A DNA stretch of 41,023 nt from a virus (lineage: Duplodnaviria > Heunggongvirae > Uroviricota > Caudoviricetes). Position 1 is the stretch's first letter; each line of letters opens with the position of its first letter. The stretch lies in IMG/VR virus record IMGVR_UViG_2690316062_000001, positions 1-41,023 of that record, one strand, 5' to 3'. The notes beneath the pieces were generated by a model, which worked only from the letters and a program-made list of their open reading frames with translations, was not told the DNA's origin and did not search any database. The translations under genes and the position numbers were made by a program. This document shows positions 4,057 through 36,012 of the stretch, one piece after another.

Positions 4057-5387
4057 TGCACTGGCACCTTCAGAGGGATCACCGGCACAAAGCCGGGATG
4101 CGTAATGGCATTACGCCGGATAATGTCCGCGTCACGCGCCGCGTTATCAAACCAGGTCGCCGCCAGCACCAGCGCGGGTAAAACCTCATCCGGTGTGCGC
4201 TGAATGATCCGTGCAGACTGTTCAAGGCGCGTGTTGATATCCGCATTCAGATCTGCTTTCACCCGGCGCAGCGCCAGAAACAGCGCATCACTGGTTGTAC
4301 GGGACAACTCCTTATCAATTGCCGTATTCAGTGTGTCGCGAATGTCAGTCAGTTCTTCCCACGTCGGCAGATCAACCGTGTTTTTCACCGCCGGTGCATT
4401 GTTCAGTGCCGGATGCGTGACGGAAGGCCAGCCGGTGCTCTGCGCAGCTGTTGTTGCCTGCCCCACTGCGGCATTCTGCATCACCGCGGAAGTTGTTGGC
4501 GCAGGCAATCGGGTGACGGCATACGCCGCTTCGCTGATTGCGGTCGTACGAAGGGTGCTGGCAACCACGTTACGCTGCTGCGTCGCCGTGGCGGTGGTTT
4601 TACTGTCCGTTTTCCAGACGCCGCGCGGTTGCAGATCGCTGCCGAGGCTGACACCGGAAAGCGTTTTGATCATGGTGACCAGGTCGCTGGCGTTACCATA
4701 AAGGCGTTTCCCGGTACGCCACATTTTCTGCACCTGCTCAACGAAATTTTTGCCTGACGATGGCGGCGGCAGAAGTACCGAGATATCCCCCTGCAACAGC
4801 CTGGCGGCATCCGATACGGCAGAATCCACCACTTTCATCGCATCAGAAACATACCCCAGCATTATGCTGGCATTACCGATAACGTCGTTCTGCACGAAAT
4901 CCGCCACACCATCGATACTGAAACCGCTGAAGCTGTCACTGATGCAGTCATCCAGTGCAGAACAGGATGACATCAGCGTCTGCGCCGTCGCCGCACCTGA
5001 TGTGGGGTAAGAGAGTTCTCCTGCTTCGACAAACTTCAGGTCAAAGCGGACAATACGCCCTTCACTTTTCGATGTGCTGACCCGAACTTCCCCGTCAACA
5101 CAGACTTTCAGCTCACCATATGTCGGGTGGACAAGCGTGCCGGGACCGGGTTTATTCAGCGCTTCAATCAGGCGATCGCGCTGGTCAAAGCAGTCATCTC
5201 CCACCACATAAGCTGTGATGGACGGGCGGAAAGTGACTTTTCCCAGATCTTCGGTATAGGGCTTGTCGCGGTTCGGGTATTCATGTGTTTCCACACGGCG
5301 ACCGGTTCCCGCACTTTCTTCTTCAACCTTAAACGGCACACCTCGAAATGACGCATCCTGAAGCCTGTCTTTCCACGTCATATACAC
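4053..5387 (-). CDS. DNA circulation protein (Mu gpN-like)
   Basis: 444-aa ORF; N-terminus MYMTWKDRLQDASFRGVPFKV...THEYPNRDKPYTEDLG...PGPGTLVHPTYGEL matches the recalled Mu N signature. Confidence 0.7.
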   Translation of the reverse strand: MYMTWKDRLQDASFRGVPFKVEEESAGTGRRVETHEYPNRDKPYTEDLGKVTFRPSITAYVVGDDCFDQRDRLIEALNKPGPGTLVHPTYGELKVCVDGEVRVSTSKSEGRIVRFDLKFVEAGELSYPTSGAATAQTLMSSCSALDDCISDSFSGFSIDGVADFVQNDVIGNASIMLGYVSDAMKVVDSAVSDAARLLQGDISVLLPPPSSGKNFVEQVQKMWRTGKRLYGNASDLVTMIKTLSGVSLGSDLQPRGVWKTDSKTTATATQQRNVVASTLRTTAISEAAYAVTRLPAPTTSAVMQNAAVGQATTAAQSTGWPSVTHPALNNAPAVKNTVDLPTWEELTDIRDTLNTAIDKELSRTTSDALFLALRRVKADLNADINTRLEQSARIIQRTPDEVLPALVLAATWFDNAARDADIIRRNAITHPGFVPVIPLKVPVQ

Positions 5388-5390
5388 TCC

Positions 5391-5421
5391 GAAAATAAAA
5401 AAGCCACCTATTAGAAGGTGG
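5391..5421 (-). terminator. Rho-independent terminator after tail-operon moron
   Basis: Minus strand reads GCCACCT-tctaat-AGGTGGC followed by TTTTTTATTTT, immediately 3' of the 5443-5973 ORF. Confidence 0.6.
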
Positions 5422-5442
5422 CCTTGTAATGAATTTTATTAA

Positions 5443-5973
5443 TTAGCGGGTCAGAAACAACGAATCTTTATACTTTTGCTGTTGTTCATTTAAATACTTA
5501 GCTGTTTCATCGCTGGCAAATGGAAATATTACCGTATTTTTAGGCATGGTAATTTCTTTTTTGTCCAGCGTCAGAGTAAACATAGGAACATACTGAGCAG
5601 AGTAACGCACCGCAGAAACGAGCTCTAGTTTAGACTCTTCAATAACACTTAAATTATCCAGGCTAACTTTCTCTTCATCTTTTTTCTTTGACGCATTTAA
5701 AGTTTTTATTACTTTATTTAATTTCTCCTGAAAATCCTCCTTAAAGTTTTCAGGATTGCCGTCGACAACAAGAATCTGTTCACCCTGATTATCTGGAAAA
5801 ATAATCTTTGCACTTATCAATTTATTTTCTTTATAAACATCACCAAGTTTTATGGCTCCTCCAGATAACTGAATAATATGTTCATCTTTAAAGGAGATGT
5901 TGCCAGAGATTATGAGAGATGAAAAAATAGCCGCTGCTCCAAGAATTACACTTGCTGTGATATAGCCTTTCAT
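5443..5973 (-). CDS. Hypothetical membrane-anchored or secreted protein (AT-rich moron inside tail operon)
   Basis: 176-aa ORF with hydrophobic N-terminus MKGYITASVILGAAAIFSSLIISG; visibly AT-rich compared with GC-rich flanking tail genes; own terminator. Confidence 0.6.
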   Translation of the reverse strand: MKGYITASVILGAAAIFSSLIISGNISFKDEHIIQLSGGAIKLGDVYKENKLISAKIIFPDNQGEQILVVDGNPENFKEDFQEKLNKVIKTLNASKKKDEEKVSLDNLSVIEESKLELVSAVRYSAQYVPMFTLTLDKKEITMPKNTVIFPFASDETAKYLNEQQQKYKDSLFLTR

Positions 5974-23952: not shown

Positions 23953-24395
23953 ATATTCTTTCCTGTTCAAACTGGAGAGAATTGTACTACAGTTTGAACT
24001 CAACTCATCTGTTTCATCATTGTGTACCCATTGATGTTCTTTTATATACCCTCAATACCCGTTTCATCGCGGCACTCTGGCGACACTCCTTAAAAATCAG
24101 GTTCGTGCTCACCTTTCCTGCCCGTTCTCCCCGGGTAGCAAACCGATAATACACCGTTCGCCAGTCCTTACTATCAATGACCAAGATTCCTGCCCATATC
24201 ATTTTAGCCGCAGCCTAATTTATGCTGGTTATTGTTACGTGTGAATTCAGTTAGCTGCATAAATTGTCACGGAAGTGATACATCGATATTATCGAGAAAT
24301 TCACTCGAATTTATACGATTGAAACTGCACTTATATCTGTTTTAAATACTCCGAACACTCTTTACAACAACTGTGTGAAAATGGAGATAATTAAA

Positions 24396-25124
24396 ATGAA
24401 AAAGGGTTTGGCTATTTCATTCATTGCCGCCGTGTGTGCATTTGCTGCAAATGCGAGTGCTGAGGAAAGTAAAAACGGGTTTTATCTAACCGGTAAAGCC
24501 GGTGCCTCTGTGGCGTCGTTATCAGACCAGCGTTTTCAGTATGATGAAGGCGATTGGTCAACTGGATTTAAGGGCAGCAACAACCATGACACGGCGTTTA
24601 GTGGTGGTATCGCAGCGGGTTATGACTTTTACCCACAGTTCAGTATTCCTGTTCGTACGGAGCTTGAATTTTATGCCCGCGGAAAGGCTGATACAGAATA
24701 CAATCTTTTTAAGGACGACTGGGTGCGAGCTGACATGAAGAATGAGGTGTCAGTCAACAGCCTGATGTTGAACGCGTACTATGACTTCCGGAACGACAGC
24801 GCATTCACCCCTTGGGTGTCCGCAGGGATTGGTTATGCAAGAATTCATCAGAAATCAACGGGTGTCATCACCTTCGATAATGGATACGGATACAGTGACC
24901 GCGCATCTGATTCCCGTTCAGATTCTTCTGATAACTTCGCATGGAGCCTTGGTGCTGGCGTCCGCTATGACGTAACTCCAGATGTCAGTCTGGACATCAG
25001 TTATCGCTACCTGGATGCAGGTGATGCCAATGTGACTTATACCGATGATTGGGGCGATAAATATAAATCAGATGTTGATGTAAAAAGTCATGACATTATG
25101 CTTGGTGTAACCTATAACTTCTGA
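24396..25124 (+). CDS. Outer-membrane beta-barrel protein (Ail/Lom/PagC-like)
   Basis: Start chosen at the second Met with GGAGA 9 nt upstream; signal peptide MKKGLAISFIAAVCAFAANASA; alternating aromatic/hydrophilic strands; C-terminal ...GVTYNF. Confidence 0.7.
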   Translation: MKKGLAISFIAAVCAFAANASAEESKNGFYLTGKAGASVASLSDQRFQYDEGDWSTGFKGSNNHDTAFSGGIAAGYDFYPQFSIPVRTELEFYARGKADTEYNLFKDDWVRADMKNEVSVNSLMLNAYYDFRNDSAFTPWVSAGIGYARIHQKSTGVITFDNGYGYSDRASDSRSDSSDNFAWSLGAGVRYDVTPDVSLDISYRYLDAGDANVTYTDDWGDKYKSDVDVKSHDIMLGVTYNF

Positions 25125-25172
25125 ACAAACCTTTTCTAAATTATAATTACACGCTTACTGTGATTAACTAAA

Positions 25173-25206
25173 GCCCCCTGCAATATATTGCTATGGGGGG
25201 CTCTTT
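25173..25206 (+). terminator. Candidate terminator after OMP gene
   Basis: GCCCCC...GGGGGC stem enclosing a GCAATATATTGC palindrome, then TCTTT. Confidence 0.4.
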
Positions 25207-25605
25207 CGCTCATCGTGCAGGATGATTTTTGCCTAATTCCGTTATCACCACAATAATATTCATCGACATTTTCTTAATGGACACCTGAAAATATTTTATC
25301 GGGTAATATTCCGAGATTTTATTGTTTTTATTCTTTTCCGTTATCTCTGATAATATTGTAAGCATCCGGTGAACTCGCCTTGCGTGGACTAGCCAGTCGT
25401 TGTAGCACTGACGCCGCTGCGTTGAGTTCTTTTTTTCGCCATCAGCTCTCCTGCTTCTGTAGATAAAGAAGAGACAGAAGAATGGCGTTGATCACAACGA
25501 CCAGTAATGCGAATTCATCGGCCCCTCACACTGTTACCGCGGCAACGTCCTGCGCACAGAAGCTCTTATGCGTCCCCAGGTAATAAATAATTGCCTCTTT
25601 GCCCG

Positions 25606-27319: not shown

Positions 27320-27865
27320 TCATATCGCCCCCAGCATGGTAGTAACCATCGCCATCAATGGACCAGCCAGATCTGGGTCCACACGAAACATCGATACAAT
27401 ACCTTCACTAATTTCCTTCAGTTTCTGGTGGCGTGGTGCGTTGAGAATGACAGCCTGTTTTGCCTCACTGAGTTCCTTTTCCATTTCAGCCAACCTAGCC
27501 ATGAAGCTATCCTGCTCAACCAGGTAACCGCGATATTCCAGCGGTAGTACCGCCAGAATTGCCGGGGTCAGTTCACGCACGTTATTTCGGTATTTTTCAG
27601 AATCGAATTTGTTATCGAGGAAGCGGAACAGCTTCTGGCGTGCACGGCTGACATCATCAGGGAAATCGATGGTGCCGCCGCCCTGCTCCCGATACTCATT
27701 CACAATGAGTGTGGCAACGACATCCTGATTATCTACAGCCGACCAGGCGCGGACGGCATCACGGATTTTTTCGTGGCCTGCCACCTGTTTTGTTTGAGAA
27801 CGATTTATCACCGCAGTCGGGCTAAATCCGCTAGTCTGTTGGTATGTAAGTGGTTGCATAGTCAT
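27320..27865 (-). CDS. YdaT-like regulatory protein (cII position)
   Basis: 181-aa ORF between cro-like gene and O; motifs NEYREQGGG and ILAVLPLEYR resemble recalled Rac YdaT. Confidence 0.5.
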   Translation of the reverse strand: MTMQPLTYQQTSGFSPTAVINRSQTKQVAGHEKIRDAVRAWSAVDNQDVVATLIVNEYREQGGGTIDFPDDVSRARQKLFRFLDNKFDSEKYRNNVRELTPAILAVLPLEYRGYLVEQDSFMARLAEMEKELSEAKQAVILNAPRHQKLKEISEGIVSMFRVDPDLAGPLMAMVTTMLGAI

Positions 27866-27889: not shown

Positions 27890-28117
27890 TTAGGCGGCAG
27901 AATTACTCGCGTTAAACAATGGTGCGAGGTCGGGACGAATATCTGCTGGTTTAATCTTTCCACCAGTGGCTGAGACAATTTTCATTACATAGCGGGCATC
28001 AATTCCGCCACCGTGTAGCCAACGCCAAACTGTGGGTTGGGCTACACCGCATAGATCTGCCAGTCGTTTTTGACTGCCTGTAATACTGATTGCGAGTTGA
28101 ATGGTTTGATTTGTCAT
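27890..28117 (-). CDS. Cro/YdaS-like HTH repressor
   Basis: Start at ATG preceded by AGGA; HTH QKRLADLCGVAQPTVWRWL; divergent from cI. Confidence 0.6.
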   Translation of the reverse strand: MTNQTIQLAISITGSQKRLADLCGVAQPTVWRWLHGGGIDARYVMKIVSATGGKIKPADIRPDLAPLFNASNSAA

Positions 28118-28151
28118 TATCAATTCCTATTGGTATTGCAATGAATGAATA

Positions 28152-28180
28152 ATAGCAATGCGTATTAATCCAAGCAATAG
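28152..28180 (-). promoter_or_regulatory. PR-like promoter for the cro/replication operon
   Basis: Minus strand TTGCTT-17 nt-TATTAT upstream of the cro-like gene; overlaps AGCAATAGCAA operator-like motif. Confidence 0.45.
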
Positions 28181-28191
28181 CAAAACGTGTT

Positions 28192-28220
28192 TTGACCATC
28201 AATACGCAAGCGTATAAATT
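28192..28220 (+). promoter_or_regulatory. PRM-like promoter for cI (near-leaderless)
   Basis: TTGACC then 15-17 nt then TATAAA/TAAATT; expected start lies within a few nt of the cI ATG at 28228. Confidence 0.4.
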
Positions 28221-28227
28221 AAAACTT

Positions 28228-28920
28228 ATGAAAAAAGAAACTCTTGCTGATCGCTTAAATCTAGCGATGGAACAATCTGGAATGTCTCAAGGCGCTCTTG
28301 CAAAGGCGTCTGGCGTAGCTCAACCCACAATCTGGAGACTGACAAGCGGCAACGCGCGCGGCTCAACAAAAATTGTTGAAATAGCTAATGCATTGGGTGT
28401 TCGAACAGAATGGCTCTCTTCAGGCATAGGCCCGATGAGAAATGACGGTCAACAATCAGGGAAGCCTGCTGTCAGCCATTCCAAATACTTCAAAATTGAC
28501 GTTCTTGATATAGAAGTCAGTGCCGGGCCGGGTGTAATCAACCGTGAGTTTGTAGAAGTTCTACGCTCGGTTGAATACTCGTTTGACGATGCTCGTCACA
28601 TGTTCGATGGCAGGAAGGCGGAAAATATCCGCATCATTAACGTGCGTGGTGACAGCATGTCAGGAACGATCGAACCAGGTGATCTGCTGTTCGTTGATAT
28701 CACGGTTAAATCTTTCGACGGTGATGGTATCTATGCGTTTCTGTATGACGACACCGCCCATGTAAAACGCCTGCAAATGATGAAGGATAAGCTGCTGGTT
28801 ATCTCTGATAACAAGAGCTACTCACCGTGGGACCCGATCGAGAAAGACGAGATGAACCGCGTGTTCATCTTCGGGAAAGTCATCGGGAGCATGCCGCAGA
28901 CATATAGAAAGCATGGGTAG
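28228..28920 (+). CDS. CI-type repressor (HTH plus S24 LexA-like autopeptidase)
   Basis: N-terminal HTH QGALAKASGVAQPTIWRL; C-terminal GDSMSGTIEPGDLLFVD (Ser) and HVKRL (Lys) catalytic dyad. Confidence 0.85.
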   Translation: MKKETLADRLNLAMEQSGMSQGALAKASGVAQPTIWRLTSGNARGSTKIVEIANALGVRTEWLSSGIGPMRNDGQQSGKPAVSHSKYFKIDVLDIEVSAGPGVINREFVEVLRSVEYSFDDARHMFDGRKAENIRIINVRGDSMSGTIEPGDLLFVDITVKSFDGDGIYAFLYDDTAHVKRLQMMKDKLLVISDNKSYSPWDPIEKDEMNRVFIFGKVIGSMPQTYRKHG

Positions 28921-29004
28921 AAATCAGAACAAAATTATGCACTTCGCTTTTCAGCTTACTGTAGTAAGGCAATAAATTAGGCTTGACGTTAGCTATCAGG
29001 TGCA

Positions 29005-29019
29005 CAACAATAATTGTTG
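29005..29019. promoter_or_regulatory. Perfect 15-bp palindrome CAACAATAATTGTTG upstream of cassette
   Basis: Read directly; lies 31 nt upstream of the 29050 ATG, after a TTGACG -35-like hexamer at 28983-28988. Confidence 0.4.
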
Positions 29020-29049
29020 AATAATAGGTTTTTTTAACTAGGTGATAAC

Positions 29050-30189
29050 ATGGCAGCGGTTGAATTTCAATTGTCTAGGAAGATGATTGATTGGATAGCA
29101 AATTCTCAAGGAGTTTCTATCGAAACTCTTGCTGACCAAGTCATGCCCAAAAAGATTAATAAATTTCTTAACGGAGTGGTAAGTAAATCCGCAGCAGAAA
29201 AACTGGCAAAAATTGGAGGAATCCCTTTCGGTTTTTTATTTCTTGAAACGCCACCAACTCCAGCCAAACCCAAGATCCCTGACTTAAGGCAAGCTATAAA
29301 TAGCCGTGAGTTAGGAAAAGATTTTTTTGATGTTTACTATGATATAGAATATAAACTTGAGTGGTACAAAGACTATTTAAGAGAAAATGGTAATGATGAT
29401 CCACTCGATTTTATTGGTAAATTTAAATTTAATAGAAAATTAAATTATAAGGTTGTTGCTACAGACATAGCAAACACAATACATTTTGATATACAAAAAG
29501 AGATAAAAAATGTCACTTTTGAGAGCTATTTTTCTAAAGTGGCAAAATTAATAGAAGACACTGGCGTATTAGTTTTCAAGAATGGTGTTGTGGGTAATAA
29601 TAATAAAAGAAAACTTGACACGCGAGAGTTTCGTGGTTTCTGTATATCTGATAGCGTTGCTCCGATCATTTTTGTAAATAGCTCGGACGCGTTATCTGCG
29701 CAGGTATTTACATTATTTCATGAGGTGGCTCATCTTTGGCTTGGAGTCGATGGAGTCTCTGGGTGGGACACAGAAAAAAACATAGAATCTTTTTGTAATA
29801 AAGTTGCTGCTGAAATCTTAATGCCTGATAATCTCTTCAAATCTTTCTGGCTTAATGCATCCAGCGATAATAATTATTATCGAGTAAAAGAGGTTTCTAA
29901 GTTATTTAAGGTTAGTGATTTCGCTTGTGCAATCAAAGCGTTACAATTAGATTTGATAGAAAGAAACACTTTGGAGATAATTAAAGATCAAGCTTACAAT
30001 AAGCCCAAAAAAGAATCTAATGGTGGTTCTTTCTTTAACACATTACCTGTTCGTAACAGTCCAAAACTTACGAATATAATAATTTCCAAAGCAATGTCTC
30101 AACAATTACCATTAAGGGAAGCAGGCGTACTGCTAAATGTAAAAGCAGATACAGTTGTTGAATTTTATAAAAAACGAGAATCTCTATGA
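29050..30189 (+). CDS. HTH domain fused to ImmA/IrrE-family zinc metallopeptidase (COG2856)
   Basis: AGGTGA RBS; N-terminal HTH-like segment; HEVAHLWLG (HExxH) followed by VAAEILMP, the ImmA/IrrE signature; strongly AT-rich. Confidence 0.8.
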   Translation: MAAVEFQLSRKMIDWIANSQGVSIETLADQVMPKKINKFLNGVVSKSAAEKLAKIGGIPFGFLFLETPPTPAKPKIPDLRQAINSRELGKDFFDVYYDIEYKLEWYKDYLRENGNDDPLDFIGKFKFNRKLNYKVVATDIANTIHFDIQKEIKNVTFESYFSKVAKLIEDTGVLVFKNGVVGNNNKRKLDTREFRGFCISDSVAPIIFVNSSDALSAQVFTLFHEVAHLWLGVDGVSGWDTEKNIESFCNKVAAEILMPDNLFKSFWLNASSDNNYYRVKEVSKLFKVSDFACAIKALQLDLIERNTLEIIKDQAYNKPKKESNGGSFFNTLPVRNSPKLTNIIISKAMSQQLPLREAGVLLNVKADTVVEFYKKRESL

Positions 30190-30698
30190 TTCATAATGGA
30201 AAATTCTTAATTGATAGTAATGTCTTCATAGAGGCAAAAAACTTTGCATATAACTTCAATTATTGCAAAATATTTTGGGATTTTCTTCTCGCTTTACACA
30301 TTAATGGTCTGATTTATAGCATTAATGCTGTAAAAAAAGAACTATGTGCAAAAGATGATCCATTGTGTAAATGGATTAAAGAAGAGTTACCATCATCATT
30401 CTTCGAAGATGAGCATAGTTCAATAGAAAATTATGCAAAGTTAATAAATTGGTCAACTAAATTAGATGTTACCGAAAAGGCAAAGTTTGATTTTGCAAGC
30501 CATGAAAAAGCAGATGCTTTTTTAATAGCCCATGCGATGACACATGGATATACTATTATTACCCATGAGAAACCATCCGGTGGCAAACCTAAAAAAAGAA
30601 TAATGATCCCGGATGCTGCTGCTTCTCACGGCGTTAAGACATTAACACTATATGAATTTCTTCCAAGATACGCTAGTCATAATTTTTCTTTGAAATAA
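30186..30698 (+). CDS. PIN-like nuclease domain protein (DUF4411 family)
   Basis: ATGA start/stop overlap with upstream gene; N-terminal FLIDSNVFIEAKN PIN-like strand with Asp; further acidic residues spaced as in PIN folds; ...IAHAMTHGYTIITHE. Confidence 0.7.
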   Translation: MIHNGKFLIDSNVFIEAKNFAYNFNYCKIFWDFLLALHINGLIYSINAVKKELCAKDDPLCKWIKEELPSSFFEDEHSSIENYAKLINWSTKLDVTEKAKFDFASHEKADAFLIAHAMTHGYTIITHEKPSGGKPKKRIMIPDAAASHGVKTLTLYEFLPRYASHNFSLK

Positions 30699-30703
30699 AA
30701 CGT

Positions 30704-30730
30704 CCCGGCCACCGTGCCGGGTTTTCTTTT
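30704..30730 (+). terminator. Rho-independent terminator ending the cI-cassette operon
   Basis: CCCGGC-caccgt-GCCGGG followed by TTTTCTTTT, 6 nt after the stop at 30698. Confidence 0.7.
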
Positions 30731-30860
30731 GCCTCCCCTCATCACACACACCGTTCAAAAAACCACCACAACCCCGCTTCAGTTATCGCTATGCGATGCA
30801 AGTCACAAAATTAATTCTTTTTGCTATCAAATATTTAATATCAAAACACATCTAGCAATA

Positions 30861-30889
30861 GCAATAAGTATTGATATCATCAATAGCAA
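30861..30889 (+). promoter_or_regulatory. PL-like promoter with operator-like repeats
   Basis: TTGATA-17 nt-TATTAT; spacer and flank carry AGCAATAGCAATA / CAATAGCAATAGC, the same motif as in the cro-cI intergenic region. Confidence 0.45.
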
Positions 30890-31176
30890 TAGCTATTATC
30901 ACCATGTCGCAACAACACAACGATACGGCAATCACCTGATTCACCGTTGCGATGACCGCTTAGATCCGCAGCTTGAATTTCAGCAGGCTCCGGGGAGTGC
31001 GAGGGGTGAAGCGGACGCGTGAACGTCGGTGTGACCAGCTGAAATCAACTCAACACTTCATACCTTAGTCGCTTCAACGAGGCGGCTTAGTTATGACAAC
31101 CGGCGGCCATCCACCGCCTGAATACGCGCAGAAGTCTCTATATGTTCAGCAGCCCAGCTTACGGGCAGGAGTTTTT

Positions 31177-31383
31177 ATGGTTCATCAACATTACGGAACG
31201 CAGACCGTTAATCGCGGCGCGGTCATGCCAGGAATGCTGGTCAAACACAAAGATGGTACCTGGACTGCATCAGCTAATTTACGCGGACGGCTTTATCTGC
31301 ATCGCGGCATCGAGCGCACTTATACCCGTGATTTGCTCGTGGAAGTTTTTCTCGACGGACGCGGTAACGGCCTGAATCACTAA
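31177..31383 (+). CDS. Hypothetical early protein (kil/cIII position)
   Basis: 68-codon ORF starting at ATG with CAGGAG 7 nt upstream (MVHQHYGTQTVNRGAV...); the longer 31093 start lacks an RBS. Confidence 0.35.
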   Translation: MVHQHYGTQTVNRGAVMPGMLVKHKDGTWTASANLRGRLYLHRGIERTYTRDLLVEVFLDGRGNGLNH

Positions 31384-31459
31384 CCCCCCTTTCCTGTTTT
31401 CCTAATCAGCCTGGCATTTCGCGGGCGCTATTTTCACAGCCATTTTCAGGAGTTCAGCC

Positions 31460-31756
31460 ATGAACGCTTATTACATTCAGGATCGTCTTGAGGCTCAGAG
31501 CTGGGCGCGTCACTACCAGCAGATCGCCCGTGAAGAGAAAGAGGCAGAACTGGCAGACGACATGGAAAAAGGCCTACCCCAGCATTTGTTTGAATCGCTC
31601 TGCATCGATCATTTACAACGCTGCGGGGCCAGCAAAAAAGCCATTACCCGTGCATTTGATGACGATGTTGAGTTTCAGGAGCGCATGGCAGAACACATCC
31701 GGTACATGGTTGAAACCATTGCTCACCATCAGGTTGATATTGATTCAGAGGTATAA
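31460..31756 (+). CDS. gam: Gam, RecBCD inhibitor (short GamS-length form)
   Basis: 98-aa [63 protein letters not shown]..., recalled as near-identical to lambda GamS. Confidence 0.9.
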
Positions 31757-35864: not shown

Positions 35865-35880
35865 CTTATTGATTTAAATG

Positions 35881-35928
35881 GTGCCGATAATAGGAGTCGA
35901 ACCTACGACCTTCGCATTACGAATGCGA
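35881..35928 (-). other. att core: 48-bp copy of the 3' end of tRNA-Thr(CGU) (thrW-type), not a complete tRNA
   Basis: Reverse complement GCATTCGTAATGCGAAGGTCGTAGGTTCGACTCCTATTATCGGCACC corresponds to anticodon loop (CGT), T-arm and acceptor 3' strand of tRNA-Thr; flanking sequence on the 5' side does not continue the tRNA. Confidence 0.7.
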
Positions 35929-36012
35929 AGTTTTTATATTTTAACTGCTTGAACAACCATCAGAAATCACAAATTTATCATTTTAAATCATAATATTAAA
36001 ACAAAAAACCTG

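Follow-up and report, generated by a model that had tools for sequence, protein, structure and literature searches.

A probable VapBC52-type toxin-antitoxin module as cargo in the immunity operon of an Escherichia coli lambdoid prophage

The structures of the M. tuberculosis VapBC52 pair (Rv2515c/Rv2514c; PDB entries 9vzy and 9vzz) were reported by Singh et al. (Nucleic Acids Research, NAR, June 2026; PMC13273310), who credit Tandon et al. with the earlier proof that this locus is a functional toxin-antitoxin system. The PIN toxin, VapC52, is toxic, stops growth and cleaves tRNAs, and it is neutralised by VapB52, which is composed of an HTH-like N-terminal domain, a middle domain in which an M78 peptidase is joined to an HTH, and a C-terminal domain of four helices; each VapC52 dimer is bound by one VapB52, the N-terminal domain being essential for binding and the C-terminal domain occluding the active site (PMC13273310). 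Single-stranded DNA (ssDNA) triggers an HExxH-dependent self-cleavage of VapB52, probably at a conserved 'FR' motif in the linker, which removes the N-terminal domain and is proposed to free the tRNA-cleaving toxin (PMC13273310). The complete VapBC52 gave no protection against phage D29, protection being obtained from toxin overexpression only, and its demonstrated roles are copper tolerance and growth in the host (PMC13273310). Here we report on a 41,023-nucleotide stretch of DNA (positions 1 to 41,023 of the IMG/VR record IMGVR_UViG_2690316062_000001; below referred to as the window), which is an Escherichia coli lambdoid prophage and is 100% identical to strain CI5, where the prophage is present at the argU/DLP12 site. 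Downstream of its cI repressor gene the window carries a 1,782 bp cassette (28921..30702, + strand) with two genes, gene 1 and gene 2, and we consider it likely that this cassette is a type II toxin-antitoxin module of the VapBC52 type, which the prophage carries in its immunity operon as lysogenic-conversion cargo and the toxin of which would be released by self-cleavage of its partner and abort infection.

The pairing of an HTH-COG2856 protein with a PIN (DUF4411) protein was predicted to be a three-component toxin-antitoxin system in 2009 and 2017 (PMC2701414, PMC5499597). Moreover, the NetFlax toxin-antitoxin network (Ernits 2023, PMC10440598) has an ImmA/D25 antitoxin zone that includes pairing with PIN-like toxins, and this zone is enriched in validated defence systems, e.g. 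RosmerTA (PMC10440598). A reading of the window made from its letters alone (the sequence-only reading) had proposed the architecture of a toxin-antitoxin-like or abortive-infection module, which is supported by homology to both VapBC52 chains; it had also implied that the pairing is new and had known of no experimentally characterised member, and both points are superseded by the predictions of 2009 and 2017, by the place of the pair in the ImmA/Rosmer zone of NetFlax, and by the structural and biochemical characterisation of VapBC52. In the searchable literature we found no reported test of an E. coli or phage-borne ImmA plus PIN/DUF4411 pair; searches for one led to the VapBC52 paper only. 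The new elements here are that the cysteine switch is lost across the clade, that the pair is tightly associated with the immunity operons of prophages, and that its slot has sharp bounds and several uncharacterised alleles.

The cassette, as delimited by BLAST breakpoints against ten sister prophage loci and by its G+C content, comprises its own promoter, gene 1 (29050..30189, +; 379 aa) and gene 2 (30186..30698, +; 170 aa). The two genes share an ATGA start/stop overlap, which can be read directly in the sequence (30186..30189, +) and which probably couples their translation. The G+C content of the cargo is 33% (0.333) vs 0.47-0.49 for the flanks, and the profile falls to 0.30-0.36 across the cassette; the open reading frames (ORFs), their overlap and the AT-richness are hence as the sequence-only reading had described them.

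Profiles, a structure model and homology identify the gene 1 product as a multidomain ImmA/IrrE-type zinc peptidase, predicted to act as antitoxin and sensor in a VapB52-like manner. It matches Pfam Peptidase_M78 (E=1.2e-13, 51 bits; cut-off 22), PADLOC capP (1e-14) and PHROG 2439 (3e-76), and it has the motifs HEVAH at residues 224-228 and NKVAAEILMP at residues 250-259. Alignment places the zinc site at H224-E-V-A-H228 and E246, with S237 at the position of the VapB52 cysteine switch (codons within 29719..29787, +), and the P77-D78-L79-R80 codons (29278..29289, +) in a low-confidence linker as the counterpart of the VapB52 'FR' self-cleavage motif. The AlphaFold2 model (pLDDT 89, pTM 0.80) has a helical N-terminal domain (residues 1-64), a lower-confidence linker (65-89) including the P-D-L-R, a core with the peptidase and helices (90-317), and a C-terminal set of four helices (328-378). 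The best Foldseek matches in a PDB library up to April 2026, in which 9vzy is not included, are CapP (7t5t) and IrrE (3dti). Among 37 antitoxin homologues D78-x-R80, H224, E225, H228, E246 and C249 are invariant. For 120 closest homologue clusters the HExxH motif was found in 120/120, the middle residue of D-x-R was L in 95, F in 21, M in one and A in one, and the position of S237 was occupied by Ser in 115, Thr in three, Cys in one and Phe in one. The ImmA/IrrE assignment of the sequence-only reading thus holds, and its N-terminal HTH found no match among the Pfam HTH models, either in gene 1 or in any of 36 homologues. An HTH-like nature of the N-terminus is weakly suggested by the profile alignment to the VapB52 N-terminal domain, by a weak match to the HTH of cI (hhalign; E=3.5e-4, probability 37%) and by a weak Foldseek match to C.BclI. 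The sole NCBIfam match, to the spr1629 antitoxin family, was sub-threshold (24.6 bits vs a cut-off of 335), and this family was rejected.

Gene 2 encodes a DUF4411 PIN-like nuclease and, again based on profiles, model and homology, it is the predicted VapC52-like toxin, in keeping with the PIN-like nuclease fold that had been proposed from its opening strand, FLIDSNVFIEAKN, and its acidic residues. The match to Pfam DUF4411 is strong (E=1.2e-37, 130 bits; cut-off 23.5), as is that to PHROG 11126 (1.3e-67); like the Peptidase_M78 match of gene 1, the DUF4411 match cannot be ascribed to chance. An alignment of 36 toxin homologues shows no variation at D10, E52, D110 or E128. The AlphaFold2 model has a pLDDT of 88.7, and all its top Foldseek matches in PDB are VapC PIN toxins (probability 1.0), the closest being VapC2, VapC15, VapC11 and the Shigella VapC. 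No match for gene 2 was obtained in PADLOC, including the RmrT models.

The link to VapBC52 is carried by both chains. Specifically, gene 2 matches chain D of 9vzy ('DUF4411 family protein') with E=7e-6 when the single sequence is used and with 7.8e-13 for the family profile, and gene 1 matches chain A (393 residues, 'HTH cro/C1-type domain-containing protein') with E=8e-7 as a single sequence; the gene 1 family profile gives E=2.3e-22 against 9vzy_A over profile positions 10-334, spanning the N-terminal and middle domains. In these alignments D10/E52/D110/E128 of gene 2 fall on the D/E/D/E of VapC52, the D-L-R of gene 1 on the D-F-R of VapB52, and S237 stands opposite C229. CapP and IrrE, the structural matches of gene 1, are homologues that were also reported for the VapB52 middle domain (PMC13273310).

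The two genes also stay together. In an IMG/VR scan that yielded 75 loci, 73 of them with upstream DNA and with antitoxins forming 39 clusters at 90% identity, a gene 1 homologue was positioned directly upstream of the DUF4411 homologue in 73/73 loci, and the same 4-nt overlap was present in 33 of these 73. Likewise, the partner was directly upstream in all six homologue families for which gene context was examined. The toxins from Rosenbergiella, Providencia and Klebsiella are 79%, 66% and 61% identical to gene 2, respectively, and in these genera the pair lies between the prophage repressor and N or recombination genes, with repressors and replication modules that differ; in a Rac-like element it follows an HTH-only repressor. 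A same-strand, cI-like ORF with HTH and S24 domains was found within ≈1.3 kb upstream in at least 18 of the 39 clusters (40 loci), which is a lower bound since HTH-only repressors were not modelled. The survey of cI-downstream loci that had been suggested for this pair therefore shows that it recurs after prophage repressors in several genera. Other homologues have other neighbours: one distant homologue is on an integrase island beside a methyltransferase and ResIII (type III-like restriction-modification) pair, another is near Arc/pRha-type phage genes, and the Actinobacillus homologue occupies an ordinary chromosomal site. Among GenBank phages (INPHARED) the cassette had no megablast match and the toxin had one tblastn match with 27% identity, and therefore the module is essentially absent from the phage records of that collection, though it is present in prophage-derived contigs of IMG/VR. 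The pair is a self-contained mobile module, and the slot downstream of a repressor is its strongly preferred, though not its exclusive, location.

The boundaries of this slot are sharp. Pairwise BLAST against the ten sister loci placed the left breakpoint at the cI stop codon (28919-28921) and, for seven of these loci, the right one at 30703/30704, i.e. the first base of a terminator stem; two loci, with a SIR2 allele, regain homology only at 30940, and the remaining locus is an IS1-interrupted copy of the same cassette. The right edge is thereby marked by an intrinsic, tImm-like terminator of the immunity operon (30704..30730, +) with a stem of six pairs, all of them G-C (30704-30721), and a T-run after it, and this terminator is kept in sister prophages with other cargo as well as in an ST131 prophage in which the site is empty. 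Because homology to the sister prophages resumes at 30703/30704 the terminator belongs to the phage backbone, like lambda tImm, and the cargo is therefore 28921-30702. The strong terminator that the sequence-only reading saw as closing the cassette is accordingly present, but it is not the cassette's own. Taken together, cassettes appear to be exchanged at a precise site, namely the interval from the cI stop codon to the backbone terminator. The SIR2 allele was also seen to replace the terminator and the OL/PL operator region, although its cI is ≈97% identical.

With respect to frequencies, among 5,426 complete E. coli genomes 719 have the same cI (at least 95% identity), 2,033 have the PL-side flank and 33 have the cassette (at least 99% identity). 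Apart from the cassette, the slot holds a HipA-like kinase (HipA_2) with a DUF3037 protein (PADLOC candidate PDC-M66; 284 genomes), an unannotated protein with an ASCH protein (PADLOC candidate PDC-M11; 275 genomes), a SIR2 protein (PADLOC candidate PDC-S25; 166 genomes), a DUF7946/DUF7947 protein (Pfam match only), two LF82 proteins (no Pfam or PADLOC match) or, in the ST131 prophage, nothing. All sampled cargos are AT-rich (30-40% G+C). The cassette-bearing immunity region is present at two integration sites, argU (CI5) and beside ybhC (IAI1). Mosaicism had been described before for the cI-N region, a hotspot with rexAB and bstA (PMC8585504).

On the + strand we found no terminator-like site between the cI stop (28920) and gene 1, as had been noted in the sequence-only reading. 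A sigma-70-like promoter, TTGACG-17 nt-AACAAT (28983..29011, +; 9/12 matches in the promoter scan), is located within the cassette, and its hexamers and spacing, together with the Shine-Dalgarno sequence, are kept upstream of the Klebsiella and Rosenbergiella homologues where the surrounding DNA diverges. We infer that in the lysogen the cassette would be transcribed by read-through from the cI promoter and/or from this conserved promoter of its own; the former fits the lack of a terminator from cI to gene 1 and the shared terminator just after gene 2. A sequence search also identified a perfect palindrome, CAACAAT-A-ATTGTTG (29005..29019, no strand), over the -10 hexamer, which is a possible operator; its second arm is missing in the Klebsiella, Rosenbergiella and Providencia homologues, and the case for an operator at 29005-29019 is weak because the palindrome is not conserved in the homologous loci.

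Based on these data the preferred mechanism can be outlined as follows. In the lysogen both genes would be transcribed via cI read-through or the cassette promoter, with coupled translation, and in the resting state the gene 1 protein would hold the gene 2 PIN dimer inactive, as judged from the homology to 9vzy, with its N-terminal helical domain docked on the toxin and its four-helix C-terminal domain covering the active site. Phage attack or a DNA-damage signal, most likely ssDNA considering the biochemistry of VapB52 and CapP (the latter is also activated by ssDNA; PMC13273310), would then activate the M78 peptidase, which is predicted to cut the linker within the same chain at P-D-L-R (residues 77-80). 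Once the N-terminal domain is lost, the toxin would be free and might cleave tRNA using D10/E52/D110/E128, resulting in a translation stop and aborted infection. This VapBC52-type reading builds on the two-chain homology, the conserved catalytic and linker motifs, the predicted folds, the obligate pairing and a slot that otherwise carries candidate defence systems; for the E. coli pair itself we infer toxicity, neutralisation, trigger, RNA target and protection by analogy. The context is of the defence type in that the slot after the same cI carries the PDC-S25, PDC-M66 and PDC-M11 candidates in other strains.

Several points weigh against this reading. The similarity to VapBC52 is remote and convincing only with sequence profiles, and the function may have drifted. 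With Ser in place of the cysteine switch in 115 of the 120 clusters, the activation mechanism, and perhaps the trigger, may be different. The C-terminal domain of gene 1 is not alignable by sequence to that of VapB52. PADLOC v2 has no model for the toxin, and the matches of gene 1 to its RmrA-type models are weak. The complete VapBC52 did not protect against D29, and native-level defence is at best putative for any member. Finally, in two enterotoxigenic E. coli (ETEC) genomes (ATCC 43886 and E2528-C1) an IS1 interrupts gene 1 near codon 180, with 9 bp of the target duplicated (29586-29594), and leaves the antitoxin as an N-terminal ORF of 189 aa and a C-terminal ORF of 205 aa, while the toxin gene is intact and identical to wild type (WP_000581650.1). 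An intact toxin gene next to a split antitoxin is unexpected if the free toxin is lethal, unless polarity or the fragments prevent toxicity; polarity, fragment complementation and low toxicity are possible explanations for the survival of these strains. In one IMG/VR copy that is 99% identical, gene 1 is intact and the toxin frame is broken into two ORFs (5001-5156 and 5178-5513 of the contig); this copy may be a toxin-inactivated variant.

Among the alternatives, the one that survives best is that the pair serves as a prophage addiction or stabilisation module, which kills or arrests cells that lose or inactivate the prophage, or modulates growth under DNA-damage stress. It shares with the defence reading the homology to a type II toxin-antitoxin pair, and it gains from the Actinobacillus homologue in its ordinary chromosomal context and from VapBC52, the complete form of which has roles in copper tolerance and growth in the host and gives no phage protection. 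We regard it as unlikely, however, given that the slot carries candidate defence genes in sister prophages, that homologues are also found beside restriction-modification genes, that the ImmA-antitoxin zone is enriched in validated defence such as RosmerTA (PMC10440598), and that, with the same cI, numerous prophages persist although their slot is empty or filled otherwise.

A further alternative follows from the comparison with ICEBs1 and Deinococcus drawn in the sequence-only reading, where a separate repressor is cleaved on a stress signal. Gene 1 would then be an ImmA-type anti-repressor that cleaves a cI-like or other Xre repressor on stress, thereby providing a second induction route, with gene 2 as an accessory nuclease. 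ImmA, IrrE and CapP do cleave a separate HTH repressor (PMC2701414, PMC13273310), gene 1 is immediately downstream of cI, and its N-terminal region aligns weakly with the HTH of cI. Yet this cI has a self-cleavage S24 domain of its own and is present in 719 genomes as against 33 with the cassette, while the pair travels with unrelated repressors (S24 or HTH-only) and without any prophage; gene 1 is always paired with DUF4411; and its D-x-R linker motif fits self-cleavage of the VapB52 kind. The analogy to cleavage of a separate repressor does not hold for VapB52, which cleaves itself, and the anti-repressor role is very improbable. The least probable alternative, with reversed or mixed roles, i.e. 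an Xre-peptidase fusion that is itself toxic and a DUF4411 protein acting as a modulator or DNA-directed effector rather than as a tRNase, can appeal to the toxicity of overexpressed PD-lambda-2B (an Xre-peptidase fusion) by itself (PMC9519451), to the listing of COG2856 as a possible toxin by Makarova et al. 2009 (PMC2701414) and to a weak PADLOC match of gene 1 to PD-Lambda-2_B (8.5e-4), but this similarity is marginal, the four PIN catalytic acids are invariant, a large partner gene placed first and overlapping the toxin gene is the usual antitoxin-toxin order, and in the homologous VapBC52 it is the PIN protein that is the toxin and the peptidase protein that neutralises.

Returning to the VapBC52-type reading, it is conceivable, albeit rather doubtful, that the proteobacterial phage-borne clade is a mechanistic VapBC52 variant that, with Ser in place of the cysteine switch, responds to a different cue (e.g. 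a specific phage protein, or a replication or recombination intermediate), provides abortive-infection defence at native level and may have to be kept silent during the SOS induction of its own prophage, when ssDNA is abundant, and that slot alleles such as the LF82 pair and the DUF7946/DUF7947 protein are new defence systems. The cassette offers a member that is tractable with E. coli and coliphages in a family whose only characterised representative is that of M. tuberculosis, where no phage defence by the intact system was observed. The prophage copy could answer whether self-cleaving protease-antitoxins indeed sense infection, what the trigger is in the absence of the cysteine switch, and how a prophage avoids its own DNA-damage-type sensor at induction. 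Moreover, six or more different cargos occupy the slot after cI in E. coli, and for three of them the sole matches are to candidate defence families; the slot is a compact place to search for new prophage defences.

The immunity region that surrounds the cassette has the following layout. The + strand of the window corresponds to the leftward direction in lambda, and the gene order is a cro-like gene (- strand), cI (28228-28920), gene 1, gene 2, the terminator, an OL/PL-like region, and then kil, gam, bet and exo. The cI-type repressor (28228..28920, +) has an HTH and an S24 self-cleaving peptidase domain (Pfam HTH_3 1.5e-6, Peptidase_S24 1.5e-18), and its start in RefSeq is the ATG at 28228 rather than the TTG at 28192. 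The OL/PL-like region (30854..30899, +), identified by motif and promoter scan, has three operator motif copies of the AGCAATAGCAA type around a TTGATA-17-TATTAT promoter. Exact copies of AGCAATAGCAA are present at 28173, in the cro/cI intergenic region, and at 30854, and copies with one mismatch at 30879 and 30885 adjoin the PL-like promoter (30871-30899); six matches were observed, a number reached in 0/100 shuffles. The motif noted as shared by the PR/PRM-type and PL-type control regions is therefore real.

The cro and cII positions (27320-27865 and 27890-28123, - strand) are occupied by genes for which the annotation gives a YdaS-like HTH protein and a protein with a 'toxin YdaT domain', and such a pair also flanks the repressor in Klebsiella and Rac-like prophages with homologous cassettes. 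Between the PL-like promoter and the kil-like gene no N-like ORF was found in 30731-31176, where the RefSeq annotation is empty; an N_peptide gene is present here in the homologous prophages of Providencia and Rosenbergiella. Rfam, applied to the window as well as to 28800-31500, revealed no structured RNA in or beside the cassette, and no put-like or nut-like element downstream of PL. Elsewhere in the window a host tRNA-Arg at the prophage attachment site (35880-35956, - strand) is annotated in RefSeq and matched in Rfam with 36 bits; ARAGORN reported no tRNA in the window. A DUF4145-domain gene (≈24275-25027, - strand) lies between the replication genes and the nin region and adjoins a local G+C dip (0.38) and a pseudogenised DNA polymerase III theta-like gene (25000-25400). 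Its position holds different genes in sister prophages, and it may be another cargo gene.

Compared with known systems, the cassette resembles lambda rexAB and BstA in being located between cI and PL, inside the immunity transcription unit; RexAB has been described as a prophage abortive-infection system, and BstA, which the prophage expresses strongly in the lysogenic state, acts by abortive infection (PMC8585504). However, there is no sequence or fold similarity to these systems and the mechanisms are wholly unlike, RexB being an ion channel and BstA acting at phage replication sites, and neither protein of the cassette had a match to RexA/RexB in Pfam, NCBIfam, PHROGs or PADLOC. With CapP/CapH (CBASS), IrrE/DdrO (Deinococcus) and ImmA/ImmR (ICEBs1) gene 1 shares the M78 peptidase fold and an attached HTH subdomain. 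These systems differ in that a separate repressor is cleaved to switch on transcription, whereas here the protease itself is the predicted substrate and the output would be toxin release. Moreover, no dedicated small HTH partner travels with the gene 1/gene 2 pair; the sole adjacent HTH protein is the prophage cI with its own S24 domain, which is not linked to the pair in other contexts.

RosmerTA (RmrT/RmrA; Millman 2022) is similar in that its antitoxin is a zinc peptidase of the ImmA type, in many cases with an HTH at the N-terminus, and that the toxin partner can be exchanged, and several of its members give phage defence and some are phage-encoded (PMC10440598). The matches are weak and point to relatedness rather than to clear membership: gene 1 matched twelve PADLOC RmrA models with E-values of 6e-8 to 8e-4 and at most 30 bits, some of them over nearly the full length (residues 20-314), and the gene 2 product, with its predicted PIN fold, matched none of the RmrT models. 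Canonical VapBC systems have in common with the cassette a PIN-fold toxin with an acidic quartet, but there VapB is a small AbrB, RHH or Phd protein, whereas in the cassette its place is taken by an M78 enzyme of 379 aa, which probably governs its own removal.

VapBC52 is the closest of these systems. It differs from the E. coli pair in having FR instead of LR as linker motif, and in the cysteine switch, since C229 of VapB52, which lies in a loop and as fourth zinc ligand auto-inhibits the peptidase, is S237 here, with Ser in nearly all of the proteobacterial clade. It is also an actinobacterial chromosomal locus, whereas the E. coli copy resides in the immunity operon of a temperate phage, and the M. 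tuberculosis pair is characterised by structure and biochemistry. What the two share is a gene for a large peptidase-antitoxin directly followed by that for a DUF4411 PIN toxin; a zinc site of HExxH with a downstream Glu, the D-[FL]-R of the linker that joins the N-terminal domain to the middle one, and the four PIN acidic residues; and a three-domain antitoxin, the C-terminal domain of which corresponds by its helix count (four) and not by sequence alignment. The cassette hence adds a member to the known VapBC52-type family and is not a new kind of system.

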